IMG/VR virus record: IMGVR_UViG_3300036823_000136
Location: 1-61,394 of that record
Length of the DNA stretch: 61,394 nt
Reading direction: 5' to 3' (one strand)
Origin: a virus
Lineage: Duplodnaviria; Caudoviricetes
Under the pieces are notes generated by a model that saw only the letters and a list, made by a program, of their open reading frames with translations, was not told the DNA's origin and did not search any database. Both the position numbers and the translations under genes were made by a program. Each line of letters begins with the position of its first letter. Positions within the stretch are counted from its first letter, which is position 1. This document shows, piece by piece, positions 4,737 to 32,995 of this stretch.

Positions 4737-7351
4737 CGGGGTGCCCTTCGCTCGATCCAAGCTCGCTGGACCTCGACGATACGGTCCCGCTCCGCAGTGG
4801 CGCGCTGGCTCCACGTGCCCGTCCGGCCAGCCGCTTCGTCGAGCCCGGCGAGCACGCGCTCGTGGTGCGCCGCCGGTGAATCCGGCAGGTCGGCCATCAG
4901 CGCGATGTCGTCGGCATCGTCCAGCGCCCAGGCGTAGACGGTGTCGCACATGCAGCCCGCGTGGTCGCCGGGCTTGAGGTGCGTCCCTACCCATTCGGCC
5001 GCTGGCGGGGAGATCAGGGCCGGGTCCTCGAACCCCTCGAACTTGCGGCCGGCCAGGTTCAGGTGAGGCTCGAAGGCGTTGGACCTCGGCGTGATGCCGT
5101 AGCGCCAGGTGAACCCGATCCGCTCCGCGTGGGTGTCAACGGCGCGGAGCAGGTCGCCGCCCAGCGCGATCCCGCCCGGCCCGGCGTGCGGCCCGCCGAT
5201 TTCGGCCAGCGCTTCGCGGATGTCGCCCGGCAGGATCACCGAGTCCGGCACCTCGCCGCGGAGCTGGTCGCCGTGACGGCCGTACATGGCGTCCGTGGCG
5301 CGCGAGCGGAGCGTGCCTTCGAGCTTCTTCCAGGCCGCGGGGATGCGGTCGGTCATGGCCTGGGTGAGCGCGGCCACTGCGGTGAGCGGCAGGCCGACCA
5401 TGCCGGCGACGGTCTTCACCGAGGCCTTGATCGTGGCCGCCGACCACTGCGCGAACTTGCTGGCCAGGTAGGAGAACGCCAGCGTGAGCAGCACGTCCTC
5501 GGTGAGCCCCAGCTCGGTGACGCGCACCTGGCCCAGCGTCCGGCCGGCCAGCGCGGGCGGCACGTCCTTCAGCTCCGCGGCCAGGGCGGTGAACTTCCGG
5601 CCCTGGACCTGGGCCTTGATCTTGGCGCCCGCCTTCTCCAGGGCCCGCTGGAGGTCAGCTTCAGCGGTCGCCCGGATGCGCTCGATGAGGTCGTGATCGA
5701 GGTCGGCCAGCCGATCACCCGTGATGATCTTTACTGAATCGAGTACTCCCTGCGAACCTGCCGCACTTGCGACCCTGGCGCCGGGCGGTGCCGCCTGTGG
5801 AGTTCCCTGGGGCGGCGCGGCCTGACCTGGGCCGACCTGCTTGACCGGCGCGGAGGTGATGACCGGCGGCGTGCCGGGCACGGCGGGCGGCTGGATCGGG
5901 TTGCCGTTGGAGTCCAGGATGCGATCGTTGTTCGGGATGATCGCCTTCACCCCGAGGATCTCCGCGGCGATCTGGGTCAGTGTGTTCGGGTCCGGCCTCG
6001 TCGCCTTGATCATCATGATCTGCTGGAGGTCTTCTTCCTGCGGGGCGTCGTCCTCGCCGAAGCCCTTCGCCGTGCGGTAGGCCTTGAAGCTGATGGCGCC
6101 CCGGTCCATCGCCTGGTCAGCGTCCTGTGAACGGTTCGCGTTCTCCGTCAGGTTGCCCGCGGCGTACCACAGGCGGACGCTCTTGGCCTCCTCCTTGGTC
6201 AGCCCGTAGCCGCCGTCGTCCACCGACAGCATCAGCATGCGGCGGAACCAGGAGTTCGTCAGCGAGTCGACGATCAGCCGGCACGTGGGCTCAAGGTGGT
6301 TCTTGAAGGCCTGGGCATCGATCAGCCACGCCGTCCAGTGGTTCGCGTCCTGGATGCCCCGCATGGCCTGACTCGGCAGGTCGATGCTGTCGCCGACGCG
6401 GTCCAGGTTGCGCGACAGCCGGTTCATCAGCTCGTCGTCGGTCTCCCGGACGAACGGAATGTGCCTGATTTCCTTACCGTCCTCAGCCTCACCCTGGATC
6501 AGGATCGGCACCACGGCGGACGGGTGGCCCTCGTTGTTGATCGGCTGAGTCGCGGCCGTGGTGAAGCCGGACAGGAAGGAGTCGTTCTCCGGGGTCGCGG
6601 TGGGCTCGCCGTCGCGGACCATCGAGCAGCCCGACGGGATGAACAGAATGCCGTTCGAGGCAATGCGGCTCAGGCTCGCGGCCCGGATCTCCCGGCCGGC
6701 CAGCACGATCTCCTCGCACACGTCGAGCAGAGCCCGGAGCGCGGAGTCGGCCAGCTCGTCGTACTCGGGGTGCGGAACCCACAGCCGGATGAGGACTTCG
6801 CCGGAGTCCGGCTTCACCTCGCGGGCGCCGCGGCCCGGAACCTCGATGATCCCCAGTCCCCCGCCGACGGACGGCACGACCTCGCTCGTCGAGCGCACTG
6901 TCCATCGCTCGTCGCCGAAATGGTCCTTGCGCATGTGCAGCCAGCACTCGCCGGCCACGTCGAACCCCTGGACCATCCGGCCGATGAAGCCGTAGCCGTC
7001 CTCCCAGGGAAGCCGCTGGGCACAGTCCACAGCGGCGGCGGCGATGCGCTCATCGACGTAGGCGTGGCCGTCTTCGTCCTTGTCCTGGTCCGGCTCGCCA
7101 GTGAGCACCTTGGGCTCGTCGGCATCCGGCACGACGGCCGCCGCGGTGAACTGGACCTTGGCGATGAGCTGACCCTTCATCCGCAGGGCGCCGCCCAGCT
7201 CGCCGATCGAGTTCCGGTAGTTCCAGGCGAGTGCCTGCCAGGCCATGCGGGTGGCGGAAAGGGTGGCGATGGTCTCCCGGTCGTGCAGGTCGATGACCCG
7301 CCCGGACGCGGTGATGGGCGTCCGGTCCTTGCGTCGACTCCAGAGAGGCAT
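4733..7351 (-). CDS. Portal protein with C-terminal MuF-like head morphogenesis domain
   Basis: WQALAWNY..IGEL and NHWTAW portal-type motifs, Pro/Gln linker, C-terminal PGDHAGCMC. Confidence 0.8.
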   Translation of the reverse strand: MPLWSRRKDRTPITASGRVIDLHDRETIATLSATRMAWQALAWNYRNSIGELGGALRMKGQLIAKVQFTAAAVVPDADEPKVLTGEPDQDKDEDGHAYVDERIAAAAVDCAQRLPWEDGYGFIGRMVQGFDVAGECWLHMRKDHFGDERWTVRSTSEVVPSVGGGLGIIEVPGRGAREVKPDSGEVLIRLWVPHPEYDELADSALRALLDVCEEIVLAGREIRAASLSRIASNGILFIPSGCSMVRDGEPTATPENDSFLSGFTTAATQPINNEGHPSAVVPILIQGEAEDGKEIRHIPFVRETDDELMNRLSRNLDRVGDSIDLPSQAMRGIQDANHWTAWLIDAQAFKNHLEPTCRLIVDSLTNSWFRRMLMLSVDDGGYGLTKEEAKSVRLWYAAGNLTENANRSQDADQAMDRGAISFKAYRTAKGFGEDDAPQEEDLQQIMMIKATRPDPNTLTQIAAEILGVKAIIPNNDRILDSNGNPIQPPAVPGTPPVITSAPVKQVGPGQAAPPQGTPQAAPPGARVASAAGSQGVLDSVKIITGDRLADLDHDLIERIRATAEADLQRALEKAGAKIKAQVQGRKFTALAAELKDVPPALAGRTLGQVRVTELGLTEDVLLTLAFSYLASKFAQWSAATIKASVKTVAGMVGLPLTAVAALTQAMTDRIPAAWKKLEGTLRSRATDAMYGRHGDQLRGEVPDSVILPGDIREALAEIGGPHAGPGGIALGGDLLRAVDTHAERIGFTWRYGITPRSNAFEPHLNLAGRKFEGFEDPALISPPAAEWVGTHLKPGDHAGCMCDTVYAWALDDADDIALMADLPDSPAAHHERVLAGLDEAAGRTGTWSQRATAERDRIVEVQRAWIERRAPR

Positions 7352-7358
7352 TTAACGA

Positions 7359-7655
7359 TCACTCCCTAGTGTCAGCGTGTTCCATCCGATCCACCAGGCC
7401 CGTGATCACCCCGGCTCCAGCTGAGGATGCCAGACCGGCGGCGGCGATGCCCCAGATGCGCGGGGCCACGGCGCGGGCAATCGCGACGCCCATCCCGACC
7501 CAGATGCTCAGGCACCAGGGGCACGTGATCAGCTCCGCGGCCTTGCGATCCCCGTACTTGATGATCAAGTCCTCGCGCTGCTTCTCGAAGATCGTGTCCG
7601 TCTGGAGCAGGCGCACGAGCCGGTACGTGGCGGCGAGGTCTACAGCCAGTTCCAC
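7359..7655 (-). CDS. DUF1360-like membrane protein
   Basis: YRLVRLL..D..F and CPWCLSIW motifs with TM helices. Confidence 0.7.
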   Translation of the reverse strand: MELAVDLAATYRLVRLLQTDTIFEKQREDLIIKYGDRKAAELITCPWCLSIWVGMGVAIARAVAPRIWGIAAAGLASSAGAGVITGLVDRMEHADTRE

Positions 7656-7768
7656 GCCTGCACCGCCCCGATGATCAGGAGCACGAAGGTCATGCCCAGG
7701 ATGAAGCCGGTCCAGCCGGCCCGCCGGATGGCGGTGTCCTCGTCCACCTCGCGTCTGTGGCCACCCAC
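7640..7768 (-). CDS. 42-aa single-TM microprotein
   Basis: MGGHRREVDEDTAIRRAGWTGFILGMTFVLLIIGAVQAWNWL; fills operon gap with GC-rich third positions. Confidence 0.5.
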   Translation of the reverse strand: MGGHRREVDEDTAIRRAGWTGFILGMTFVLLIIGAVQAWNWL

Positions 7769-7774
7769 GCATGA

Positions 7775-7891
7775 TCATCTCCCGTCGTTCTTGCGCTTGC
7801 CGACGATCCCCATGACCCAGCCGGAGTACAGCCACAGGCCGATGGTGAGCACGGCAAAGGCGACGAACCCGACCCACGTCCCGGCGCTCAC
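7775..7891 (-). CDS. 38-aa single-TM microprotein
   Basis: MSAGTWVGFVAFAVLTIGLWLYSGWVMGIVGKRKNDGR; GTGA overlap with upstream gene. Confidence 0.55.
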   Translation of the reverse strand: MSAGTWVGFVAFAVLTIGLWLYSGWVMGIVGKRKNDGR

Positions 7892-10489: not shown

Positions 10490-10506
10490 GCCCCCAGAAT
10501 GGGGGG
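10490..10506 (-). promoter_or_regulatory. Operator 2 in sRNA promoter
   Basis: GCCCCCAGAATGGGGGG. Confidence 0.7.
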
Positions 10507-10747: not shown

Positions 10748-11194
10748 TCAGACCACCGCCTTCTTGACGTAGGACCGCGGGTAGAGCACCTCGTGGCCGC
10801 CGACGTTCACGCGCACCGTGTTCGACGGCGCGACCACGGTGCCGCGTACGCCGCCGATGACGATCACCTCTTCGCCGACCTCGAAGTCCTCACCAGGCTG
10901 GTCGCCCCGGGGAAGCAGCTTCCGGGGAAGCGAGTGGTGGCGCACCAGCTCGATGAACGCCATGATGGCGTCCGCGCGCTCCCACGCCAGGTCGTTCTGC
11001 GCGGAGTCGCCAGCGGAGCCCACGTCTTTCACGGCCCCGCACGCTTCGACCAGCATCTCCTGGAATTCCGTGGACCTGATCCCCGCGTCGGGCAGTCGGG
11101 TTGACCGGACGGCGGCGGTCGCCTCGTTCAGCGACTTGGCCAGTGCGGCGGCGAGATCGGCGGCGGCGCGCTCGATCCCGCTGGGCGTGCTCAC
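10748..11194 (-). CDS. Hypothetical protein with possible C-terminal SH3/KOW-like segment
   Basis: FEVGEEVIVIGGVRGTVV..VRV; coupled start. Confidence 0.6.
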   Translation of the reverse strand: MSTPSGIERAAADLAAALAKSLNEATAAVRSTRLPDAGIRSTEFQEMLVEACGAVKDVGSAGDSAQNDLAWERADAIMAFIELVRHHSLPRKLLPRGDQPGEDFEVGEEVIVIGGVRGTVVAPSNTVRVNVGGHEVLYPRSYVKKAVV

Positions 11195-11598
11195 GCGTCC
11201 TTCTCGACGTAGAAGGCTTCGACGAGGTACCGCGCGACGGAGACCCAGTTTGAGCCCGCGAGCGGCTCGCCGTTGAAGTGGTCCGACAGCCAGTAGTCCA
11301 GCTCCTCGACGGTGACGGCCCGGCGCACGCCGTCCGGCACCGGCACAAGCTCGCGCGGCGCCGGCCGGTCCTTGGACCACACCACCGGCTTCGCCTGGTC
11401 GTCGGCAACCCACTGCTTGTCGCCGTTCGGTCCGGTCGCGACTTGCCAGACCATCCCGCACGGGCGCTTGCCGCTGCCCAGCGGTGACCGGCACTCCCAG
11501 CGCGCCCCGACCTTCACGCCCCAGCTGAGCCACGGCAGCTTGCACATGTGCTCCTGGGCACCGGGCGGCAGCCACTTGCCCTTCATACGGTCGGCCAT
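11191..11598 (-). CDS. Hypothetical protein
   Basis: Coupled ORF, Cys/His/Trp rich. Confidence 0.65.
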   Translation of the reverse strand: MADRMKGKWLPPGAQEHMCKLPWLSWGVKVGARWECRSPLGSGKRPCGMVWQVATGPNGDKQWVADDQAKPVVWSKDRPAPRELVPVPDGVRRAVTVEELDYWLSDHFNGEPLAGSNWVSVARYLVEAFYVEKDA

Positions 11599-11831
11599 CA
11601 GGCGCCCTTTCCGTGGTCCGCGGGGTTAGCCAGCGGGTTGCAGATGCAGTGGGGGTCCTTGCACAGGCAGTAGTCGTTCAGCTCCTCGTCGTCCAGGTTC
11701 ATCACCGGCGCGTCCTCTGCGGCGTGGCCGCACTTCTCGCACCGGCCCCAGTCGACCGTCTTCCGGTCGATCACGCGCATTGCGTCGTCGAACTTCTGCC
11801 GGGCGGCCTTGAAGGCTCCGAACATGATCAT
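11598..11831 (-). CDS. Small Cys-rich protein
   Basis: CEKCGH and CLCKDPHCIC. Confidence 0.6.
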   Translation of the reverse strand: MIMFGAFKAARQKFDDAMRVIDRKTVDWGRCEKCGHAAEDAPVMNLDDEELNDYCLCKDPHCICNPLANPADHGKGA

Positions 11832-12205
11832 CCTTTCCGGGTTTTCGGGTCAGCCGGCGGGCGCTCCGGACCGTGGAGCGGCTCCTGCCTCAGCCAGCGG
11901 AGATTGCGCTCCATCAGGCCACCCCACACGCCGTAGTGCGAGGCGTCCGGGTGGTTGATGGCGTACTCCAGGCAGCGCACGCGCACTGGGCAGCGGAAAC
12001 ACAGGGCTCGCGCCTTCCGATCGGCGTTGCTGACCTTGGCGCCCTCGGCGACGAAGTAGAACTCCGGGCCGACCTCGGCGCACAGCGCGCCGGGAAATCC
12101 GAACCCGCGGTCCACGTCCAGCCTGCGGGCGAGGACGGCGACCGCCCGGGAGTTCAGCGCGGGGTACGACGAGCTGGCGCCGCCGTTGCGGCCTGGACGG
12201 ATCAT
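11828..12205 (-). CDS. whiB: WhiB-family transcriptional regulator
   Basis: Four Cys (LC..CFRCPVRVRC) and GVWGG turn. Confidence 0.9.
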   Translation of the reverse strand: MIRPGRNGGASSSYPALNSRAVAVLARRLDVDRGFGFPGALCAEVGPEFYFVAEGAKVSNADRKARALCFRCPVRVRCLEYAINHPDASHYGVWGGLMERNLRWLRQEPLHGPERPPADPKTRKG

Positions 12206-12606
12206 TGCAATCCACTCCTGGGGTAGGGCACGGGCAGGACTCGGCGGGCAGGGCCGTTCATGGCTTCGATGTCGGTGATGGGCTGGGAGTCGACGTACAC
12301 GCCGTACAGCTCGCGCGCGGCGGCGTACGCGGCGTCCAGGATCGAGCCGGGCTCTTCGGGCATCAGCTCGAACTCGAAGACGTGGCCGCCCAGGTGGGCT
12401 TCGTACAGCTCGATGTCCTGGGGCGCGGTGTAGCGCCGGGGTGCCGGGGTCTGCACTCGCGGCACCAGGTTGGTGCCGTCGGTGTCGTACGACTGGGCGG
12501 CGCTGGGCTTCTTGCCGGGCTTGGCCCAGGTGCCGGAGTAGGCGAGGGCAATCGTGGACACCCACGAGCGGACTCGGGTGCGCCAGGTCATGCGGTGCTT
12601 AGCCAC
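12202..12606 (-). CDS. Hypothetical protein
   Basis: GTG after GAAGGAG. Confidence 0.65.
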   Translation of the reverse strand: MAKHRMTWRTRVRSWVSTIALAYSGTWAKPGKKPSAAQSYDTDGTNLVPRVQTPAPRRYTAPQDIELYEAHLGGHVFEFELMPEEPGSILDAAYAAARELYGVYVDSQPITDIEAMNGPARRVLPVPYPRSGLQ

Positions 12607-12886
12607 GACGGTGCTCCTTCGGGTCCGGGGTCGACTCGAACGGAGCGAAGAACGCTGCCGCGAGCCGGTGGCGCTCTTCCAGCTCGGCGCGAGCGCTGGC
12701 GTGAGCTGCCTCGACGAGGCGTTGCCGCGAGCGCTGGCGCATGTGCTCTTGGAGCGCGAGCGCGGTTTCGACCTGGAGGCGATCGCGGCGAGATGGCCGC
12801 CAGAGGGCCAGCCCCAGGGCCAGGCCGACGAGCGCGGAGAAGGCAACCATGACGATCAGGTCGGCCAGGCTCAGGTTGATGATCAT
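12599..12886 (-). CDS. Membrane protein
   Basis: N-terminal TM; SD GAGG; downstream of operator 3. Confidence 0.65.
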   Translation of the reverse strand: MIINLSLADLIVMVAFSALVGLALGLALWRPSRRDRLQVETALALQEHMRQRSRQRLVEAAHASARAELEERHRLAAAFFAPFESTPDPKEHRRG

Positions 12887-12924
12887 TTCGGTGTCCTCTG
12901 TCGGGAGTCTTGTCGAGGATCTTA

Positions 12925-12941
12925 CCCCCCGAAATGGGGGT
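12925..12941 (-). promoter_or_regulatory. Operator 3 abutting TAAGAT -10 box
   Basis: CCCCCCGAAATGGGGGT. Confidence 0.75.
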
Positions 12942-13072
12942 ACGAAAGGTGAAGCCCGGGGCGGAAGAGAAGACGCCCCGGGATCCAGGTCAGCGGTGAG
13001 GACAGTTCGGGCCGTGGCCCTCGTTCGGGAACCGGCCGCAGGTCCCGCATTGCTGCGGGTGCTTCGCCCTGC

Positions 13073-13687
13073 TCACTTGCACGCCGCCGTCTGGTGCGCG
13101 CCGTACGTGGCCTGGACCTTGGTGAACTGGTCCCCGGCCTTGGACGACAGCTGGCCGATGAGCCCGGTGCACGAGAACGACGTGAAGTCGAGGTACTCCT
13201 GAGCCGACTTCGCCGCTTGCGCGTTCCAGTCCACGCCCAGGCTGTCCACGGCCTGGGTCGCCACGTCCTGCGGGTAGCCGTCGCCCGCCTTCGAGGACAG
13301 CTGTCCGACCAGGCCATCGTGAGAGAAGGCCTTGAACCCCAGGTAGGACTGCGCGGAGTCGCGCGCCTGCTGGACCTGGGGCGGGAACTCCGGCGCCTGG
13401 GTAACCGGCGCGGCGGTGGCGCTGTCGGCGGTCCCCGGGAGCTTGGCCCACTCGCATGTGTAGGGGTCCCAGGCCACCGAGCTGCCGTCGGCGGGCGGCG
13501 TCGGCGCGCCCTTGGGCTCCGGGCAGACGGAGGTGGGCGCGGTGGGCGCCGCCGGGCTCGCGGCCGGAGTGGCGCCGCCCGTCACGCTGATGACGATCCC
13601 GAGGACGACGAGGCCGCCGACAATCGCGCCGGTGATCTTCAGGCCACGGTGCTTCTTCTTGGGCTTCGGCTGGATGGGGTAGGACAT
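13073..13687 (-). CDS. ltp: Ltp-family surface protein (superinfection exclusion type)
   Basis: TM anchor, Pro/Ala linker, two repeats A..SA..YL....FS..GL..QL. Confidence 0.85.
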   Translation of the reverse strand: MSYPIQPKPKKKHRGLKITGAIVGGLVVLGIVISVTGGATPAASPAAPTAPTSVCPEPKGAPTPPADGSSVAWDPYTCEWAKLPGTADSATAAPVTQAPEFPPQVQQARDSAQSYLGFKAFSHDGLVGQLSSKAGDGYPQDVATQAVDSLGVDWNAQAAKSAQEYLDFTSFSCTGLIGQLSSKAGDQFTKVQATYGAHQTAACK

Positions 13688-13715
13688 GGCGCCTGCTTTC
13701 GCGGTAGGAGTGCTT

Positions 13716-13770
13716 GCGTGGACCCGGGAGGAGTTGAACCTCCGCTGGCCGATCCGGTATCGGCGGGCCC
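13716..13770 (-). ncRNA. Minimal tRNA-like element lacking a D-arm
   Basis: GGGCCCG/CGGGTCC acceptor stem, GGAGG-TTCAACT-CCTCC T-arm, one extra hairpin, ends ACGC rather than NCCA. Confidence 0.55.
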
Positions 13771-13776
13771 CCTGAG

Positions 13777-14178
13777 TCAGTGGCGGGCGGGGCGCTTCTC
13801 GCCCTTGAACTCGCGGATGATCTTGACGAGGAAACCGGCCTCGTCCTCCGGAACCAGCGCAAGCACGTCGGCCACGGCCTGCTTGGTGGCCTTGGCCACG
13901 GTCATCCCGTCGAGCATCAGCTCGCGGCGGCGCTCAGCCAGCGCGGCGGCGGCGCGGTCCATGAAGTCGTTCGCGGTGAACTGGCGGGCAGGCCAGGGGC
14001 GCCCGCTCCGGCCACAGTCGAGGCAGTCGATCTGCTCGTGGTCGAGAGCCACGTCCGCTCGGAGCATCGCCTTGCTGCCGGTGAACGCCACGTTGGCGCT
14101 CTTGCACGTGAGGCACGTCCAGTTGCGGATGTCCATCGGGTCGACCATCGATTCGATGCGGATCGTGCTGGTGTTCAT
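13777..14178 (-). CDS. Hypothetical protein with two CxxC motifs
   Basis: CLTC and CLDC; SD AGGAGGG. Confidence 0.7.
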   Translation of the reverse strand: MNTSTIRIESMVDPMDIRNWTCLTCKSANVAFTGSKAMLRADVALDHEQIDCLDCGRSGRPWPARQFTANDFMDRAAAALAERRRELMLDGMTVAKATKQAVADVLALVPEDEAGFLVKIIREFKGEKRPARH

Positions 14179-14223
14179 GGCGGGCCCTCCTGGGCTTCAG
14201 TGTTGGTGACTGGTTCAATCTAT

Positions 14224-14240
14224 CCCCCCATTATGGGGGG
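14224..14240 (-). promoter_or_regulatory. Operator 4 in SigA promoter TTGACA-N18-TAGATT
   Basis: CCCCCCATTATGGGGGG fills the spacer. Confidence 0.85.
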
Positions 14241-14288
14241 TGTCAAGCGATTGGGGCGGGGAGCTTTTCGAGCCCCCCGCCCGGGTTG

Positions 14289-14510
14289 TCAGAAGTCGCT
14301 CTCCTCCAGCTCCGCGACGCTCCACGTGTCGCCGTTGGGCGTGACCCGCCACATCCCCTTTTCCTGCTCGACGTGCTCGACATCGACCGGGGTCGTCTCG
14401 GTGATCAGCTTGTAGATCAAGTCCTTGAAGTCCTCCACCGTCAGCTTGTCCTCGAAGAAGGTGAAGAAGTCGAAGAGCTGGGCGACGTTGAAGTTCTGAG
14501 CTGAGAGCAT
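14289..14510 (-). CDS. Small acidic hypothetical protein
   Basis: SD GGAGG; own promoter and downstream hairpin. Confidence 0.7.
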   Translation of the reverse strand: MLSAQNFNVAQLFDFFTFFEDKLTVEDFKDLIYKLITETTPVDVEHVEQEKGMWRVTPNGDTWSVAELEESDF

Positions 14511-14547
14511 CCGGGGCCTCCGTGGTCTGTGTGTGAACACAGTCTAT

Positions 14548-14564
14548 CCCCCCATTATGGGGGG
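14548..14564 (-). promoter_or_regulatory. Operator 5 in promoter TTGTGT-N18-TAGACT
   Basis: CCCCCCATTATGGGGGG. Confidence 0.8.
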
Positions 14565-14627
14565 ACACAACCCCCTGGGGAGAGAAACTTGTCCGCCGGA
14601 AGGGGGCCAATCGTCGTTTCGGGCTGT

Positions 14628-14644
14628 ACCCCCAAGATGGGGGG
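14628..14644 (+). promoter_or_regulatory. Operator 6 directly upstream of the transfer operon
   Basis: ACCCCCAAGATGGGGGG. Confidence 0.75.
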
Positions 14645-14648
14645 TGAG

Positions 14649-14837
14649 ATGATGAGACGCATGAGACTTCGACTGCTCGTGGCCGGACTGGTCCTCGCGG
14701 GGATCGCCGGCACGCTGGCCGGCCAGTTGCCCCTCGTGGCCGCCGGCCTCATCGTCCTGTACGTCATCTCGATGTTCGTCCGGGACCACCTCCGCCGAAA
14801 GCGCGGCGGCTGGTCCGGCGGACGCGACCGGTACTGA
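14649..14837 (+). CDS. Small 2-TM membrane protein (Spd-like); exact start uncertain
   Basis: Hydrophobic hairpin with basic tail; first gene of the + strand operon. Confidence 0.65.
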   Translation: MMRRMRLRLLVAGLVLAGIAGTLAGQLPLVAAGLIVLYVISMFVRDHLRRKRGGWSGGRDRY

Positions 14838-16531
14838 AGGGATCGACATGAACCGCCTGCCTGCCCTCTCCGTCGCCCGGCTCCGCATCTTCGCCGGGCT
14901 CACCATCGCCGCCGCCGCCGCGATCAGCTTCGAGTCGATCCGGCACCTCGCCGTCATCGGCGGCTTCGGGACGCTGGCCATCCTCTTCCCGCTCACCCTC
15001 GACGCGGTCGCCGCGTACGGCATGGACCTGTGGGTCCGCCGGTCCCCCGCCGCGCGCCAGGCGAAGTGGCTCGCGCTGTCGGCCATCTTCGGGTCGCTCG
15101 TCGCGAACGTCGTGGACCACTGGCTCACCCAGCGCGCGGTCCTGGGCGCGGTCCTGGGCGCGGTCCCGCCGGGCATGCTGGCCGCGCTGCTCGCCGTCGC
15201 GCACAAGCACGCGAGCGGTACCGAGGACCAAGCGGTCCCGTTCGACCCGGCGGTCCGGGACGCGGTCTGGTCCGCGCTGCCGCAAGCGGACCGTCGCGTG
15301 GTCCCGCCGCCGGACCGCTACGTGGTACCGAGCGAAGTTCTCGCGCTCGCGGTACCAACCGTTGGACCGCTGGACGCAATGGCGGACTTCCGGTCCCACG
15401 AAGACAAGTTCTGGTCCAAGGTAGAAATGGGCGGTCCGGAGGAGTGTTGGCCGTTCGTCGGGTCCCGGACCCCTGAGGGGTACGGGAAGTTCACGATCGG
15501 GGACCGCACGTACCGGGCCCACCGCATCGCCTGGTCCATCGCTACTAACCAGGTGGTCTCGGGGGATCTGATGGTTCGCCATCTCAAGTGCGACAACCCG
15601 CCGTGCTGCAACCCCGCACACCTGGCTGAAGGCACCGCGGCTGATAACGCGGCCGATCGCGTCCAACGTCTCGCGAAGCTGGAGGTCGTCCAGTCGCTCG
15701 ACGCCAAAATCATGGAGCGGAGCACCCGCCGGACCAGCGCCGCGCGGACCCCCAATCCCGCGGTCCGGCGGACCACCTCCGCCACGGTCCACAGCGACAG
15801 CGACATCGTCACCTGGATCAAGGACCAGCCCAGCCCCACGAAGCGCGCCGTCATGGCGAAGTACTCGGTCGGCTCCGGCCGCGCGCTCCGTCTCATCTCG
15901 CAGGCCAAGGAGGTCTGATCATGGCCAAGCAGCCAGGCGGACTGAACATCGTCCGTGACGTTCTCTGGGTGAAGTTCGCCCTGTGGATCGGCGCCAAGCT
16001 CGGTCGAACCGGGCGGCGTCTCGTGTTCCGCTGGCGTCGCGTCCTCTCGCCGGTCATCTTCGCGACGCTCCTGTGGGCGGTCGCGGCCATCTGGAACTTG
16101 ACCTTCCCCGAGTGGTGCTGGCTCGCGCTCGTGATCCCGGCCGCCGGTGGGACCGTCGCGTGGTTCGGACCGGTGCTGTCGGAACGGTGGTCCCTCATCG
16201 TCACGAAGCTGGTCCCGACCGGACTGGACCGCGGACGGTCCGGGGTGCTGGACCGCCTGATCGAGCGGGCCTACTTCGCCGGTCTCAGTACCACCATCGG
16301 CGGGTACCTGTTCATCCGGTCCGGCTGGGGCGGATCGGACCTCACGCTGTGGTGGTGGCGCGTGGGACTGGTCCTGTTCGGCGGCGCGTGGTGGTACCAC
16401 CGCCGGGTCCGGATGGCTGGGCGCGGGGACCGCGTCGCGCGGCGCTGGGGCCGGATCAACGAGGGCCGGACCAACAGCCGGCTGGCGCCGCTGATCGGGT
16501 CCAAACCCGTCGAGGTTCACGGCCGCGGTCC
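14690..16531. repeat. Dense cluster of GGWCC (plus GGTACC) motifs overlaid on coding sequence
   Basis: About 46 GGACC/GGTCC by manual count, about 40 per kb in the cores versus about 7 in nt 1-1000. Confidence 0.75.
14848..15918 (+). CDS. SpdA/DUF2637-like membrane protein with in-frame HNH domain and C-terminal HTH-like domain
   Basis: SF..I.HLA, FPL.LD, S..ANV and AVPP TM motifs; FWSKV..CW..GYG..AHR..RH.CDNPPCCNPAHL..GT..DN; C-terminal PTKRAVMAKYSVGSGRALRL. Confidence 0.8.
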   Translation: MNRLPALSVARLRIFAGLTIAAAAAISFESIRHLAVIGGFGTLAILFPLTLDAVAAYGMDLWVRRSPAARQAKWLALSAIFGSLVANVVDHWLTQRAVLGAVLGAVPPGMLAALLAVAHKHASGTEDQAVPFDPAVRDAVWSALPQADRRVVPPPDRYVVPSEVLALAVPTVGPLDAMADFRSHEDKFWSKVEMGGPEECWPFVGSRTPEGYGKFTIGDRTYRAHRIAWSIATNQVVSGDLMVRHLKCDNPPCCNPAHLAEGTAADNAADRVQRLAKLEVVQSLDAKIMERSTRRTSAARTPNPAVRRTTSATVHSDSDIVTWIKDQPSPTKRAVMAKYSVGSGRALRLISQAKEV

Positions 16532-17840
16532 GGTGACGGTCATGAAGATCAAGCTCGCGGAGGCTCTCACCCTCGCGGACATGTCTCGTCTCGTCGAGCC
16601 GCTCGCGAGCTACTACGGGATTCGGCCGCGGGCGATCAAGCCGCGCGAGGACCACGGCAACGCCCGGTACGTCTGGCTCACTTTCCTGCCGACCGACCCG
16701 TGGAAGCACGAGCTGCCGCACCCGGCGCCAGCTGTCGGCTCGATCTCGATCGCCAAGACGAAGGGGAAGATCCTCGTCGGGATCAAGGCCGACGGCGAAG
16801 AGCAGTCGTGGATCGTGCAGCACGCGGGCCTGTACGGCAAGACGCGGTCCGGAAAGTCGGGATTGATCCACTCCCTGCTGATGTGGATCTCCGCCTACAC
16901 GGACGCGATCGCCGTCGGCATCGACATGGCCGGCGGAGCCACGCTGGGCGCCTGGCAGCCGATGTTCGCGCGGCCGATCGCCACGAACCTCGACGAGGCG
17001 ATCGTGCTGCTGGAGCGCGTGCTCGCATTCATCCAGGTCAGGGAGCGTGCGATCGGCGCCGACGACTTCGAGGACGACATCTTCGAGCCGTCCGACGAGT
17101 TCCCGTGGTTGTTCCTGGTCATCGACGAGTTCCCGAACCTCTTCACCGCGGCGAAGGCGGCCGGGCAGATGGGCGATGGGCCGAACGCGAAGAGCTACTT
17201 CAAGTACGTCGTGGGCCTGCTCGACCAGATCGCCAAGCAGGCGGCCAAGACGGGGACGATCTTGGTTGAGGGTGCCCAGAACCCGACGAAGGACGACAAC
17301 GGCTCGAAGGAGTTCCAGGCCCAGCTCCGTTCGACCTTCGGCTTGGGGCTCGACGAATTGCAGTCGCGCAACCTGTGGGGCGTCAAAGAGCGCCTGGGCT
17401 GGACCGGCACTGACCTGGCCAAAGGCCAGTACCGGCTGCACGACGACGACCACACCGTCCCCGAGGTCGCCAAGGGGTACTGGGTCCCGAAGCACCAGCG
17501 CAAGAAGCAGGCCGCCGCCGCCGCGAAGCTGCGCAAGTGCGCGGAGCCGACGGCCTGGGCGGCGCTGATGGGCGTGGACGCGCCGGTCATCGACGCCATC
17601 AGCATCTCCAGCGCGCCGGCCGACCGCGTGCTGGCCGCCCTGCTCGACGGGCCGATGAAGGTCGTTCCCGAGCTGGTCGACGCCTCCGGGCTCAGCAAGG
17701 CCCAGGTGTACCGCCGGCTCAACGGCCACGGCGAGGCTGGCCTGGTCCACCGGCTGGAGGACTACCGCTACCAGCTCACGGACGCGGGCCGGGCGTTCCT
17801 GCGCGGCGAGGACCCGGGCACCTGGAAGCGAGTCTCATGA
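15921..17840 (+). CDS. traB: TraB-like FtsK/SpoIIIE DNA translocase
   Basis: N-terminal TM helices, Walker A GKTRSGKS, Walker B FLVIDE, C-terminal winged helix (ELVDASGLSKAQVYRRL..GLV). Confidence 0.85.
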   Translation: MAKQPGGLNIVRDVLWVKFALWIGAKLGRTGRRLVFRWRRVLSPVIFATLLWAVAAIWNLTFPEWCWLALVIPAAGGTVAWFGPVLSERWSLIVTKLVPTGLDRGRSGVLDRLIERAYFAGLSTTIGGYLFIRSGWGGSDLTLWWWRVGLVLFGGAWWYHRRVRMAGRGDRVARRWGRINEGRTNSRLAPLIGSKPVEVHGRGPVTVMKIKLAEALTLADMSRLVEPLASYYGIRPRAIKPREDHGNARYVWLTFLPTDPWKHELPHPAPAVGSISIAKTKGKILVGIKADGEEQSWIVQHAGLYGKTRSGKSGLIHSLLMWISAYTDAIAVGIDMAGGATLGAWQPMFARPIATNLDEAIVLLERVLAFIQVRERAIGADDFEDDIFEPSDEFPWLFLVIDEFPNLFTAAKAAGQMGDGPNAKSYFKYVVGLLDQIAKQAAKTGTILVEGAQNPTKDDNGSKEFQAQLRSTFGLGLDELQSRNLWGVKERLGWTGTDLAKGQYRLHDDDHTVPEVAKGYWVPKHQRKKQAAAAAKLRKCAEPTAWAALMGVDAPVIDAISISSAPADRVLAALLDGPMKVVPELVDASGLSKAQVYRRLNGHGEAGLVHRLEDYRYQLTDAGRAFLRGEDPGTWKRVS

Positions 17841-17918
17841 TCTCGTCTCGTCCGGGACGCACGTAACGCGCAGACGGGCGAGAATCCCCTGAGAATATCG
17901 CAAAAGTGAGACGGTCTA

Positions 17919-17935
17919 ACCCCCATTACGGGGGG
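17919..17935. promoter_or_regulatory. Operator 7 within an extended palindrome
   Basis: TCTAACCCCC-ATTACG-GGGGGTTAGA. Confidence 0.7.
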
Positions 17936-17953
17936 TTAGATTGGGACAAAACA

Positions 17954-17989
17954 AGGCCCCCGGAGCGGATATTCTCGCTCCGGGGGCCT
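17954..17989. terminator. Terminator between convergent units
   Basis: 14-bp perfect stem AGGCCCCCGGAGCG. Confidence 0.75.
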
Positions 17990-17996
17990 GTTCTCT

Positions 17997-18013
17997 ACCC
18001 TCAACTTGGGGGT
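17997..18013. promoter_or_regulatory. Operator 8 (degenerate)
   Basis: ACCCTCAACTTGGGGGT. Confidence 0.5.
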
Positions 18014-18540
18014 CAGGTGGTCCTGATCAGCTTTGGGCGGCCGTCGTAGGCGTTCGCCAGGGCGGCCACCGCGCGCTCCCGGCTCTCCGCCACGTCAGCC
18101 CGCGGCTTGACCTGGCCGGCCCACGCGTACCCGACGGACCACGCGCGGCCGACCGGCTCGACGTAGCCGATCGGCCGGTCGTCGAGCACGATCCACCAGC
18201 GGCCCGGCGTGCGCTCGCCCGCGGGTGACACCCGGGTTCGGCGGAGCCCGCGCTTGCGGAGCCCCTTCCAGCGCCGGGTCTCCGCGGACAGCGCGCCGGC
18301 CTGGAGACCGGAGCAGCTCGCGCAGTGGATGCGCAGGTTGTCCAGCGTGTACTTCCCGCCGCGGATACCCGGCACGATGCGGTCACAGATCATCGTGGTG
18401 TAGGTGACGATGGTCAGGCACTCCCAGCACGACGCGGTGGTGCCGTCGCCGTCGCGCTCCAGCAACGCCTGCTTGCGCTTGCGTCGTTGGCTCGCCGACC
18501 CCCGCGAGTTCGAGTTCGAGGTTCCGCGCGGTCCACTCAC
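18013..18540 (-). CDS. HNH-type endonuclease
   Basis: CWEC..DRIVP..GG.Y..DNL..HCASC. Confidence 0.75.
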   Translation of the reverse strand: MSGPRGTSNSNSRGSASQRRKRKQALLERDGDGTTASCWECLTIVTYTTMICDRIVPGIRGGKYTLDNLRIHCASCSGLQAGALSAETRRWKGLRKRGLRRTRVSPAGERTPGRWWIVLDDRPIGYVEPVGRAWSVGYAWAGQVKPRADVAESRERAVAALANAYDGRPKLIRTT

Positions 18541-18809
18541 CAGGCCGCCCTCCACACGCCGTTGGCCTCGGGGACGATAGTCGGCTGGATCACGCCCAGC
18601 TGGAAGAAGGTCTCATCGAGCCAGAACTCGGTGAGGAAGTCGCGGCCGTCGGGGCTCCACGCCTCCACAGCGCACTCCCCGACCTCGCGGACCTCCAGGC
18701 GCTCGACGTGGTTGCTCTCCGCGCCGGTGCCGGTCACGGCCGCGAACTCCTTGGTCGCCCGCCGGAACGACTGGGCGAACACCGTCTCCGTCACCTCAGA
18801 AGGCAGCAT
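18537..18809 (-). CDS. Hypothetical protein
   Basis: Coupled ORF. Confidence 0.6.
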   Translation of the reverse strand: MLPSEVTETVFAQSFRRATKEFAAVTGTGAESNHVERLEVREVGECAVEAWSPDGRDFLTEFWLDETFFQLGVIQPTIVPEANGVWRAAW

Positions 18810-19167
18810 TACCGTCTTCCTCTCCCACGATCGACGCGTAGTGGTAGTGCGGGTCCATCGCCTGGCGCACGCACTTGTAGACCTCGCTGGGGTGGTGGTC
18901 CGGGTTCAGAAACGTGATCTCGTCGAGCGCGGACTGAGCGGCCTCAGCGGTGTCGTAGACCGGCTTGCCGGAGTAGTGGCACAGGGCGATCCGCGCGTAC
19001 CCGGCGGACCAGTCCATCCGGCCGTAGCGCATGACCACGTCGCGGCGCTGGGTGCCGCCCTGGTTCTCCGCCCAGTACGCCTGGCCTTCAGGCTTGTAGT
19101 GCTGGCGGCGGCGGTCCGCTCGCTTCCTGTTCAGGCGGTTGGACTGGCTCGATCCGGACCTTCTCAT
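18796..19167 (-). CDS. Hypothetical protein with Cys/His motif
   Basis: C..SGK..Y..A..A and VYKC..H.H; ATGA overlap. Confidence 0.6.
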   Translation of the reverse strand: MRRSGSSQSNRLNRKRADRRRQHYKPEGQAYWAENQGGTQRRDVVMRYGRMDWSAGYARIALCHYSGKPVYDTAEAAQSALDEITFLNPDHHPSEVYKCVRQAMDPHYHYASIVGEEDGNAAF

Positions 19168-19916
19168 CGTGAGGCCTCCAGGAGTGCGACGACCGGCGTC
19201 CACCAGGGCGCGCCGTAGGCGATCAGGGTCAGCGCGCCGATGGCTCCGGTGAGCACGGCGAAAGCGCTGGTGGCGATGCGCTCGCCGGTGAACATCGGCT
19301 TGCGCTTGAGCACGACGTGCTTGTCCGAGAACGGGATCTTGACCTTCTCGCCCTTGCGGACGCCACCGGCGCGGAACCGCATCCACCGCGGGAAGCCCAC
19401 GGTGGCCCAGCGTTTGCCATCCATGACGACGAGCGGGCATAGCGGGTGCGGCACGCCGGACAGCGTGCAGGCGTCCCCGATGAACCAGATGTGACAGAGG
19501 CACCCGACGGTGAAGGCGAGCGCCCACATCGGCGCCAGCGCGACGTGACCGGCGAGCAGCCCCGCGTACACGGCGCCGCCGGTGAGCAGCGTCCCGAAAT
19601 TCGTGTGCGTGAACGTGCGGTGGACGGCCTCCGGCTTGTCCTTCTCGGTGCGGGTGGCCTGGTAGACAACGTGGCTGATCCACATGAACAGCTTGTTGAG
19701 CAGCCAGCTGACCGGCCCCGCCACCTTCGATATGAAAGCGGGCGGGTGGTCGATGTCCGGCCACAGCGCACCGATGCCGACGATGGCTGAGTACGCCACC
19801 GTGCGCGCGACGGCGGTAGCCGGAGTGGCGGGCCCGCTCGTGGTCAGTTCGAGCGCCAGCGGCGCCGTGAGCAGCCCGGCGGCCACGCCGGAGAGGAAGT
19901 GGCCTTTCGCCATCAT
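19164..19916 (-). CDS. YdjM-like membrane-bound metal-dependent hydrolase
   Basis: H..SG, PDIDHP, HRTFTH and H..GD..T..GVP motifs. Confidence 0.85.
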   Translation of the reverse strand: MMAKGHFLSGVAAGLLTAPLALELTTSGPATPATAVARTVAYSAIVGIGALWPDIDHPPAFISKVAGPVSWLLNKLFMWISHVVYQATRTEKDKPEAVHRTFTHTNFGTLLTGGAVYAGLLAGHVALAPMWALAFTVGCLCHIWFIGDACTLSGVPHPLCPLVVMDGKRWATVGFPRWMRFRAGGVRKGEKVKIPFSDKHVVLKRKPMFTGERIATSAFAVLTGAIGALTLIAYGAPWWTPVVALLEASR

Positions 19917-30751: not shown

Positions 30752-30768
30752 CCCCTCGTTCTGGGGGG
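30752..30768 (-). promoter_or_regulatory. Operator 11 (degenerate, within a hairpin) upstream of the lysis cassette
   Basis: CCCCTCGTTCTGGGGGG; TACGCT -10 box further downstream on - strand. Confidence 0.55.
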
Positions 30769-32065: not shown

Positions 32066-32995
32066 TCAGACTCCCTCGACTTCGGTGCCGTTACGGAACG
32101 GATGGCCCATCAGCACGCACACCAGGCCACGCCGGTAGTACTTGATCCACTGCTTGCGGTCGGCCAGCTGGAACTCCGCCGGGTCCATGCCCGGCGGCGC
32201 GCTCTTCGGGTGCGGCGCTTCGTACTTGCGACCGGTGCGCGCGGCCACCTCTTCGGCGGCGGCGGCGTGATACCGATCCAGGAGCCACGCCTCTGCCTCG
32301 TCGGCCGTCATCGCCGGAGCACCGTCGAACCCGGCCGTCCGGCACTCCGCGGACTCCCACACGTCTCCCTTGAGCCAGCGCTCGAAGTCCTTCCGGAACT
32401 TCGCATCCGGATGAGCAGCGAGGTACGGCGGGATGGCGGCGAGGATCGTCTCGACGGTGGTGCGTTGGATCGCGCGAGCCCACTCGGCCCAGGCCGTCCT
32501 CTTGGCGCCCTTCAGCCCGTAGGCCTTCCAAGCCGCTTCGAAGTCGTCGGAATAGTCGACGACCGTCCGAGTCTTCTTCGGCTTGGACGCGACAGCGTCG
32601 TGATCTTTAGGTTCTTCTTTGGGTTCTAAGACACGGTTATGGGTCTCAATTTGAGACCCCTTCACCTCAATTTGAGACCCCTGGAGGTCTCGATTTGAGA
32701 CCCCCCCGACGGCTGGGGTCTCAATCTGAGACCCCTCGATGGCGTCCACATCGAGGTAGAAGATCGTCGACCGGTTACGTCGGAACTCGCGCTTCAGAAG
32801 CCCCTCGTCCTCCAGCTCCTTCAGCACGCGCTGGACGGAGCTTTCACCGGCGCCGGACTTCCGGGCCAGGGTGGAGATCAGGAGGAAGCACGAGCCCTCG
32901 TCGTTGGCACTATCGGCGAGCGCGAGCAGCACGAGGCGCTTCGTCGCGGGGCCGATGCTGGACCGCCAAACGGTGGTCATCAAGGAGATGCTCAC
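32066..32995 (-). CDS. Replication initiator (HTH, lambda O-like)
   Basis: KRLVLLALAD.AND.G.C..LA..SG...VQR.L..L...G; F...W..Y..K..K..A..W C-terminal domain; internal iterons. Confidence 0.85.
   Translation of the reverse strand: MSISLMTTVWRSSIGPATKRLVLLALADSANDEGSCFLLISTLARKSGAGESSVQRVLKELEDEGLLKREFRRNRSTIFYLDVDAIEGSQIETPAVGGVSNRDLQGSQIEVKGSQIETHNRVLEPKEEPKDHDAVASKPKKTRTVVDYSDDFEAAWKAYGLKGAKRTAWAEWARAIQRTTVETILAAIPPYLAAHPDAKFRKDFERWLKGDVWESAECRTAGFDGAPAMTADEAEAWLLDRYHAAAAEEVAARTGRKYEAPHPKSAPPGMDPAEFQLADRKQWIKYYRRGLVCVLMGHPFRNGTEVEGV
32601..32735. repeat. Replication origin: four palindromic iterons plus AT-rich segment
   Basis: GGTCTCAATTTGAGACCCC-like units near 32641, 32663, 32685 and 32716; T-rich tract at 32601-32640. 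Confidence 0.8.

Follow-up and report, generated by a model that had tools for sequence, protein, structure and literature searches.

The window analysed here, a stretch of 61,394 nt that is one whole IMG/VR virus record (IMGVR_UViG_3300036823_000136; linear, 99% complete by CheckV), comes from a tailed phage and carries on its plus strand an operon of three open reading frames (ORFs), encoding a small membrane protein (ORF1), a DUF2637-type membrane protein (ORF2) and a TraB-like DNA translocase (ORF3). The same protein architectures support the view that this module corresponds, in a phage, to the Tra/Spd loci found on actinomycete plasmids, and the ATPase and its partner are conserved as a core gene block of the phage clade. 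We give roughly even credence to the proposal that the operon is a phage-resident TraB/SpdB2-type module for the translocation of double-stranded DNA (dsDNA), which would spread phage DNA between host compartments independently of virions. In plasmid systems DNA passes from hypha to hypha and through septa (PMC4447253, PMC5133688; these and all other papers are cited here from parts of their text), and virion-independent spread of phage DNA is therefore the simplest reading of the operon. The features that make up the module are the following:

14661-14837, plus strand: ORF1, small membrane protein of 58 aa (alternative ORF start at 14529; 67 aa from the ATG at 14636, which lies inside a palindrome)
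14848-15918, plus strand: ORF2, 356 aa, DUF2637-type (SpdB2-type) protein with an HNH segment
15322-15726, plus strand: HNH-bearing segment of ORF2 (residues ~159-293), in frame within the linker
15921-17840, plus strand: ORF3, 639 aa, TraB-like translocase with N-terminal membrane helices (~41-86, perhaps to 164), an FtsK alpha/beta motor (~195-550) and, at its C terminus, a winged helix-turn-helix (wHTH; ~565-630)
14812-16851, both orientations: CGGWCC/CGGWCCG array within ORF2 and the first ~900 nt of ORF3, candidate clt-like cis site

The TraB-like translocase and its predicted membrane partners

Described in the original prediction as an FtsK ATPase with N-terminal transmembrane (TM) segments, Walker A and B motifs and a C-terminal winged helix, ORF3 retains this description on the evidence of the alignment, the profiles and the structure model. 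The Walker A motif is GKTRSGKS (306-313) and the Walker B motif LVIDEF (398-403); hydropathy peaks lie at residues 41-59 and 66-86, and the AlphaFold model (pLDDT 82.3) has long N-terminal helices, TM segments having been called from hydropathy peaks together with model helices. When ORF3 was aligned with 28 relatives, GxxGSGKS and DE were invariant in 29/29 sequences, as was an FRWRR-type N-terminal motif, and the C-terminal wHTH was conserved. The protein matches FtsK in a PDB profile search (E 8e-10) and phrog_31069 among the PHROGs (E 2e-11), and a Foldseek search with the model placed the FtsK motor 6t8b at the top (E 6e-17, ~400 columns), followed by the conjugation coupling protein TcpA, EccC/EssC and HerA. 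For the wHTH, the model gives the order H-H-H-E-E at 569-619 with pLDDT 86-89, wHTH chains are matched at profile positions 564-618, and PF25213 is matched with an E-value of 3.5e-6, below its cut-off. A predicted complex of full-length ORF3 and ORF2, each with its own alignment, scored 0.00 in a run without controls and counts neither for nor against a contact between them.

The motor domains were placed in trees together with those of PGAP-named TraB proteins (pWTY27, pCQ4, pSSPS4.7a), unnamed representatives, and the FtsK, EccC and paralogous proteins of two Amycolatopsis genomes. With FastTree and 145 rows, the phage family and intermediates form one clade (support 95), and FtsK and EccC form another group (91). 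With IQ-TREE (LG+C20, quick search, 46 rows hand-picked from the 145), the split that separates chromosomal FtsK, EccC and other paralogues from canonical TraB, TraB-like proteins and the phage family has an SH-aLRT value of 96; on the TraB side, canonical TraB branches first and the phage family is supported at 91. A search of NCBIfam with 76 representative ORF3 relatives gave TraB as the best family for 63, EccC for one and none for 12, with no protein reaching its cut-off and a best score of 182.6 bits.

ORF2, whose gene is coupled to ORF3 by a gap of 2 nt, has four hydrophobic stretches within residues 8-115 and a conserved C-terminal tail (...VGSGRALRLI...). Its own sequence does not match PF10935 (DUF2637) even at E≤10; among the 17 sequences of an alignment of ORF2 with 16 relatives, 11 match that family (best E 2.5e-10), and the matching relatives are 60-70% identical to ORF2 over the DUF2637 part. 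An hhalign comparison of ORF2 with the DUF2637 protein of pWTY27 gave an E-value of 0.003 and a probability of 10%. Judged by its aligned relatives, ORF2 is a predicted member of the DUF2637 (SpdB2-type) family. We take DUF2637 to correspond to SpdB2, partly on the gene order of pJV1; the other basis is the pWTY27 paper, which names an SpdB2 homologue. In the portion of the literature covered by a search on DUF2637, nothing about its function turned up. The original prediction had called ORF2 'DUF2637/SpdA-like', and only the first half of that label survives: SpdA is a small (117-163 aa) soluble DNA binder whose gene contains or adjoins the sps palindrome CGTCACGTGACG (PMC4170104), ORF2 is a 356 aa membrane protein with four TM stretches, and the window has no match to the palindrome with up to one mismatch allowed. 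The SpdA label is thereby ruled out.

The original prediction overlooked the HNH segment in the linker of ORF2. The middle of the protein matches PHROG HNH endonuclease families with E-values from 5e-24 to 5e-6 and scores 23.6 bits with Pfam HNH_3 (cut-off 24.8), and a tblastn search with ORF2 matched through the HNH part alone, in 1,219 phage records. In contigs from four soil runs of four studies the segment is replaced: 15321 is joined to 15727 by 177 other letters in three of them (X2, X6, X7), and 15330 to 15869 by 316 letters in the 59,871 nt contig of the fourth (X8); the segment is therefore dispensable and mobile-looking. The nearest ORF2 relatives (P0213 and P0214, 280-282 aa, and locus L012) are without it, near relatives having a shorter, unrelated linker. 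The segment is present in several relatives of 45-57% identity (P0215, P0216, P0218, P0220, L025). This distribution suggests repeated gain or loss of the HNH at one site.

ORF1, separated from ORF2 by 10 nt, has two hydrophobic stretches in its hydropathy profile, in agreement with the earlier description of a 2-TM protein. It matches no Pfam, PHROG, NCBIfam or PADLOC family, and its tblastn relatives are confined to L012 (93%) and to L014 and L023 (32-39%).

ORF3 relatives number 289 (E≤0.001) in a library of 1.84 billion representatives and fall into 64 clusters in a large protein database, where the longest contig measures 57.9-63.7 kb in 15 clusters and 153-157 kb in four. In 21 distinct IMG/VR contigs the ATPase gene lies on the strand opposite to its neighbours. 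A survey of the co-occurrence of terL and traB, proposed with the original prediction, found a terL homologue within 8 kb of the traB-like gene, with position and strand kept, in 15 of the 21, and elsewhere in the record in one more; ORF3 identity (37-91%) declines in step with terL identity (42-98%). A hidden Markov model of the DUF2637-type N-terminal domain finds that domain encoded directly before the ATPase gene, with strong matches in 12 of 18 viral loci and weak ones in two more. A chimera at the module borders, the danger that the original prediction had named, is excluded: the independently assembled 59.9 kb contig of X8, from another study, is colinear with 13003-19915, the exceptions being the HNH segment and 88 nt that have diverged where ORF3 ends, bridges both borders, and the module is not an assembly chimera.

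A further membrane protein accompanies the module:

19164-19916, minus strand: YdjM-family membrane protein (Pfam PF04307, E 2.8e-14)

In 19 of the 21 distinct viral contigs, the unrelated phages of 150 kb included, the ATPase gene has a YdjM homologue downstream of it, and the YdjM protein may be part of the same functional unit as the ATPase. In relatives, YdjM genes were located at 11208-11912 (L018) and 10809-11423 (L026). Two large records that are complete with terminal repeats, G403 (155,347 nt) and G404 (149,735 nt), with the loci L019 and L026, encode the same ATPase family (42-44%) and YdjM; neither has a homologue of the window terL or capsid, or a Terminase_6N match. ArdC-N/MPTase and LPD29 domains occur near the ATPase in both, each of which may be a large phage or a phage-plasmid.

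On an Amycolatopsis chromosome, a DUF2637 gene (78 bits) and an FtsK-wHTH gene lie at the margin of a region that resembles a prophage, beside comEC and 6 kb from a minor tail protein. Among cultured phages, ORF3 has no match at E 1e-5; tblastn with ORF3 and with a DUF2637 relative gave none in 50,697 phage records, and neither a DNA relative of the operon (megablast) nor a relative of the Amycolatopsis module turned up.

The motif array inside the module genes

In an unbiased scan of the whole window for clusters of 6-mers and 7-mers, the top two were iterons in the replication-initiator gene (~32.6 kb) and CGGTCC/CGGACC at the module. The stretch 14812-16851 holds 43 of the 178 CGGWCC matches of the genome (4.6 expected) and 10 of its 33 CGGWCCG sites (0.8 expected), and the densest other 2,040 nt window has 12 CGGWCC. 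Against the 25 sites observed in ORF2, synonymous-codon shuffles gave 11.2 ± 2.9, and against the 15 observed in the first 900 nt of ORF3 they gave 5.3 ± 2.4; 0/500 shuffles reach the observed count in either region. The rest of ORF3, ORF1 and eight other genes, two membrane protein genes among them, are at expectation. Sites occupy all three reading frames and both orientations, and the array is not a peptide repeat. A cluster of six copies of the 8-mer CGCGGTCC at 15135-15261 had been read as an AVLG peptide repeat, a reading overturned by the wider array analysis.

Seven relatives have the same excess both in ORF2 and in the 5' part of ORF3; for an eighth relative (L020) it is confined to the latter. 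The motif itself differs by lineage: it is CGGWCC in eight phages, CGGTACC in L028 and L029, a mixture in L025, GGTGCCA in L030 and CACCAGG in the Amycolatopsis prophage. In L029, 2 kb hold 19 copies of GGTACC and the other 15.8 kb a single one, and G406, the complete genome of the L030 phage, has 15 of its 34 GGTGCCA sites in 1.1 kb over the same gene junction, far from the record ends, which lie near terL. The predicted recognition helix of ORF3 reads S-[RK]-A-[TQ]-x-[YF]-[RK]-[RK]-L in phages with CGGWCC and A-[RK]-[AP]-T-x-[YF]-R-[HS]-L in those with CGGTACC or GGTGCCA, and the ORF2 tail shifts with the motif from GSGRALRL to G[TS]xRAxxIA. On the basis of these alignments, the joint change of motif and helix fits a co-evolution of reader and site.

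Comparable dense arrays, each of a 7-8-mer particular to its plasmid, were found in or beside the DUF2637 genes of classical Streptomyces conjugative plasmids: CGCTCAC in pJV1 (12 of 13 copies), CCGCGAA in pWTY27 (14 of 17) and GCGCTCA in pSSPS4.7a (14 of 14). The passages of the literature consulted contain no description of such arrays within genes. As a positive control, the scan recovers the pJV1-type clt repeat CCGCACA directly after traB of pSSPS4.7a. The plasmid arrays lie at ~1093-2893 of the pJV1 locus (L077), from 6043 of the pWTY27 locus (L062) and at 58-1858 of the pSSPS4.7a locus (L064), apart from the clt repeats on the traB side. The pSVH1 motif GACCCGGA is not enriched in the window (7 sites, 6.1 expected).

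An array of this kind might have other causes than docking of a translocase: a regulatory or silencing element of a toxic (kil-like) operon, bound for example by the ORF2 tail or a host nucleoid protein, local mutation or repeat expansion, or restriction-modification. Classical palindromes of the restriction type include GGWCC, GGTACC, GGYRCC and CCWGG. The cores of the motifs are palindromes, some copies stand in tandem (CGGTCCGGTCCG, for instance), covariation with the motif is seen in the ORF2 tail as much as in the wHTH, and CGGWCCG is scarce outside the module (23 sites against ~40 expected pro rata from the shuffles); unregulated traB, moreover, is toxic in plasmids (PMC4447253). Such causes would have to account for sites that are spread in all frames over 2 kb of two genes, well conserved coding parts included, for an array whose position is kept while the motif itself is swapped, and for plasmids that hold non-palindromic arrays at the same place, and we consider them most unlikely.

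Promoters, neighbouring genes and the state of the phage

The three-gene operon on the plus strand of a mostly minus-strand genome, as the original prediction had it, follows from the ORF coordinates and from a strand count in which 60 of the 70 ORFs that pass a crude filter on GC content at third codon positions (GC3) lie on the minus strand; GC3 of the module genes, 0.78-0.93, is of the coding type, in a genome of 66-71% GC. Around the operon the following elements were recognized:

14623-14650, plus strand: operon promoter-like element with a weak -35-like GCTGTA, the palindrome CCCCCAAGATGGGGGG (14629-14644) and a -10-like TGAGAT or GAGATG
14543-14571, minus strand: divergent promoter (TTGTGT, palindrome site at 14548, TAGACT), serving the gene 14289-14540 and not the operon
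14217-14246: sister promoter site, TTGACA-18-TAGATT, 10/12, the sole such site from a consensus scan
17841-18012: non-coding stretch behind ORF3, with the palindrome CTAACCCCCATTACGGGGGGTTAG (17915-17938) followed by a strong bidirectional terminator hairpin (17954-17989)

The palindrome motif CCCCCCATWATGGGGGG occurs at ~15 intergenic places (27 matches on both strands, 0.71 expected), where it forms the 17-18 nt spacer between TTGACA-like and TAGATT-like hexamers, and CCCCCAAGATGGGGGG is a variant of it. Promoters with such an almost fixed 17 nt spacer (CCCCCC-N5-GGGGGG) were noted at 10490, 12925, 14224, 14548, 14628, 17919, 20276, 23191, 36507, 39593, 54307, 57139, 57537 and 60946, and weakly at 30753. 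Seven relatives have the same palindrome pair, 70-80 bp apart, before the plus-strand module and one palindrome behind it, the loop letters varying by phage and the arms being kept. The palindromic spacer may serve as the operator of a regulator that binds as a dimer, or it may belong to the structure of the promoters themselves. The sequence supports a phage-type promoter element for the operon, and with the variant at 14629-14644 taken as the promoter, the start of ORF1 is placed at the ATG at 14661; position 14628, where the original prediction began the module, is not a start codon. Its further claim, that the operon is headed by the same operator as the phage promoters, holds in the form of the variant palindrome; the hexamers of the operon are poorer than those of the minus-strand promoters, and the site at 14548 serves the divergent gene.

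Behind the operon, the terminator hairpin is common to it and a convergent HNH gene. The stretch 17841-18012 is nearly invariant in 4/4 near relatives, whereas the last ~30 ORF3 codons diverge, and seven more distant relatives have a C5-6/G5-6 palindrome 80-100 bp past the ORF3 stop; the stretch could give rise to a very short transcript, or it could act as a decoy for the operator-binding protein or as a further cis site. The palindrome CTAACCCCCATTACGGGGGGTTAG is of the promoter type, with a 9 bp stem, and faces the terminator ~20 nt away. At 17739-17828, the last ~30 codons of ORF3 are swapped for a diverged stretch of the same length in relatives otherwise 90-95% identical (also in L013).

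By PHROGs, the window encodes portal, head-maturation, large terminase, major capsid, major tail, tape measure, endolysin and holin proteins, as well as DnaB, a replication initiator, SSB, Erf, an exonuclease and a methyltransferase, all on the minus strand; Pfam adds a WhiB domain, an Ltp-type lipoprotein and the YdjM protein. The WhiB-type regulator domain (11903-12088, minus strand) lies in an accessory region between the module and the portal gene, as does the gene for the Ltp-type surface lipoprotein (13073-13687, minus strand), which belongs to a PHROG of superinfection exclusion. No tRNA genes were found in the window. The replication-initiator gene (32066-32995) contains five to six copies of TCTGAGAC / GGTCTCA at 32625-32725, spaced by ~23 bp; like those of lambda-type replicons, they are probably iterons of an origin. 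Compared with the capsid proteins of cultured actinophages (hosts Arthrobacter, Gordonia, Microbacterium, Mycobacterium and Streptomyces), that of the window reaches ~40% identity at most, and the host is therefore taken to be an actinomycete. The module was found in 24 sequencing runs, kept as contigs, all of them soil or rhizosphere metagenomes, and there is no RNA data set among the 24 listed.

These surroundings bear on the possibility that the module is a device for segregation or maintenance, in which pump and array would act in a centromere-like manner and clear or distribute replicating or plasmid-like prophage genomes over closing septa at branching or sporulation, in place of ParAB or an integrase. 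As the original prediction had noted for ParAB, no ParA/ParB family is found among the window proteins by Pfam or PHROGs, nor is an integrase or repressor family. The operon is the sole opposite-strand block, a common position for genes expressed outside the lytic programme, the phage has a lambda-like replication initiator with iterons and an exclusion lipoprotein near the module, and a 2 kb site array resembles a centromere more than a clt; in plasmids, spd functions have been tied to stability (PMC4170104). Close relatives, on the other hand, are nearly absent from genomes: among 401 sampled genomes of the class to which the Amycolatopsis belongs there is a close match in the centre genome alone and seven weak ones, G016 included. 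All holders are metagenomes of soil or rhizosphere, no sign of a carrier or plasmid state was seen, and the homologous plasmid proteins have transfer or spread functions. We regard segregation as an unlikely explanation.

The accessory genes also bear on other kinds of DNA handling at the membrane, namely exclusion of superinfecting or conjugating DNA, interference with host septal pumps of the FtsK/SffA type, or export or degradation of host DNA, in which the HNH might help. PHROGs places phage FtsK/SpoIIIE-like proteins among the moron and host-takeover genes, the exclusion lipoprotein, WhiB and HNH genes are neighbours of the module, and papers on Streptomyces phages, in the parts consulted, offer only guesses about development or replication for FtsK-like genes, which are a routine entry in papers on Streptomyces and Thermobifida phages, their role being untested there. 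PADLOC, however, assigned no defence family to the module, yielding just a resemblance of the wHTH to Csa3, on which a defence reading was dropped; the array lies on the phage's own DNA and changes with the module, which points to self-DNA as the substrate; and the HNH segment is absent from near relatives. Functions of this kind are in our judgement very unlikely.

A proposed route for phage DNA and its precedents

In the translocation reading, ORF3 would be a membrane-anchored and, by homology, probably hexameric pore and motor of the FtsK type, whose C-terminal winged helix would read a short DNA motif and load the motor at the array. ORF2 would be its four-helix membrane partner of the SpdB2 type and ORF1 a small accessory membrane protein, while the CGGWCC(G) array would be the likely docking or loading zone, comparable to clt, that marks the phage's own DNA as substrate. 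Expressed from the phage-type promoter, the module would most likely pump replicating phage dsDNA over septal or cell-cell membranes of a putative multicellular actinomycete host, so that one infection could reach neighbouring compartments without virions. We infer all three central steps, the binding of the array by ORF3, the translocation of DNA and the route between compartments, by analogy with the plasmids.

In the plasmid systems, TraB uses the winged helix at its C terminus to bind short clt repeats, and it works together with Spd proteins during spreading (PMC4447253, PMC3583192, PMC5133688); in pWTY27 the transfer gene and clt have been mapped by experiment. The TraB-clt-Spd systems for transfer and spreading of Streptomyces plasmids and actinomycete integrative and conjugative elements (pSVH1, pIJ101, pJV1, pWTY27) share with the window a single membrane-anchored FtsK-type ATPase with a C-terminal wHTH; they also resemble it in having, within one operon, a linked gene of the 4-TM DUF2637/SpdB2 type along with small membrane proteins, and in short repeated DNA motifs near or inside the genes. 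DUF2637-like genes occur on 24 Streptomyces plasmids. The order in pWTY27 is GntR, hypothetical, DUF2637, hypothetical, TraA, TraB, with DUF2637 upstream of traB as in the window, and in pJV1 GntR, TraA, (TraB), then a DUF2637-like gene. The window differs in its carrier, a tailed phage that has neither integration genes nor the replication-partition genes of a plasmid.

Several observations weigh against the translocation reading. ORF3 scores 16.2 bits with Pfam FtsK_SpoIIIE (PF01580; cut-off 24), while many of its relatives carry that domain; its best NCBIfam family, plasmid_TraB (NF041214), gives 30.7 bits against an equivalog cut-off of 800; the phage family is nested among the TraB-like rows at a support of just 81-86; and a profile of the phage-family motor domain favours chromosomal FtsK (37 bits) over canonical TraB (19 bits). 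The tree places ORF3 on the TraB side, yet the protein is far under the cut-off and the profile favours FtsK, and we therefore call it TraB-like and not a member of curated TraB; the phylogenetic comparison with TraB, EccC and FtsK that the original prediction had asked for thus agrees with it in the tree and not in equivalog membership. The 150 kb phages with the same ATPase family, G403 and G404 among them, have no array. The covariation of wHTH and motif is confounded by phylogeny, the groups being the most distant ones, and the ORF2 tail covaries too. The array covers ~2 kb of coding sequence with a palindromic core in both orientations, whereas the clt loci in print consist of direct repeats next to tra that span 50-175 bp. 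No GntR-type regulator (TraR/Kor) was found among 61 window proteins by Pfam or among 43 by PHROGs, whereas pWTY27, pJV1, pCQ4 and pSSPS4.7a all have a GntR-type repressor gene, and TraA was not found in the window proteins by Pfam or PHROGs. Finally, the cultured-phage relatives of the capsid infect mycelial and non-mycelial hosts alike.

Other replicons combine parts of this inventory. The plasmid-phages pZL12, pSLE1 and pCQ4 combine on a single replicon, like the window, the structural genes of a tailed phage with a translocase of the Tra type; elements of the pZL12/pSLE1 type, unlike it, are plasmids of 85-90 kb with ParAB (PMC4487206), and pCQ4, unlike it, has a canonical TraB. On pCQ4 (L063, NC_019307.1), a circular Streptomyces plasmid of 84.8 kb that looks like a pZL12-type plasmid-phage, TraA and TraB (5195-7827) are encoded 3.4 kb upstream of a terminase-family gene (11234-13311). 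Conjugal transfer of the plasmid-phage pZL12 requires its tra gene and two neighbours, as cited by other papers. Cultured actinophages (phiC31, VWB; PHROG FtsK/SpoIIIE-like families) resemble the window in having SpdB2 homologues and FtsK/SpoIIIE-like genes annotated, and the DUF2637 protein of the Amycolatopsis prophage matches phrog_733; in the window clade, unlike in these phages, both partners and the site array stand together as a core block. Chromosomal FtsK/SpoIIIE with KOPS/SRS has the same motor fold as ORF3, and its wHTH reads 8-mers; it is separate from the phage family in the tree, and its motifs are polar along the genome, in contrast to the one 2 kb zone of the phage.

The idea of a phage-borne pump is already in print, with the plasmid-phage pZL12 and the SpdB2 homologues of actinophages, and pCQ4 is a further precedent. 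Thoma et al. 2015 noted putative SpdB2 homologues on some actinophages that might help to spread phage DNA. Within the parts of this literature on SpdB2 homologues cited here, intramycelial spread of a phage as DNA is a suggestion and not an experiment. What is new is a deep TraB-like lineage fixed together with its partner in an uncultured phage clade without detectable plasmid or integration genes, and a lineage-specific motif array inside the genes that is common to classical plasmids. The array makes a prediction that can be put to the test: the sites expected to be bound by the wHTH are CGGWCCG for the window phage, GGTACC for L029 and GGTGCCA for G406, and function should be lost once the sites are recoded. 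The module could also become a tool for DNA movement between actinomycete strains.

For the study of phage spread, the clade is a compact, conserved and apparently complete candidate, with motor, partner and site array. If the plasmid arrays are real, they would add a cis element to the Spd/TraB model of spreading. More tentatively, and with some doubt, we consider that a whole clade of soil actinophages may possess a self-contained 'naked DNA' route, consisting of a TraB-like pump, a channel partner of the SpdB2 type and, within the coding sequence of the module itself, 2 kb of docking motifs that evolve along with them, in which case the in-gene arrays of pJV1, pWTY27 and pSSPS4.7a would be a general part of DNA spreading in actinomycetes.

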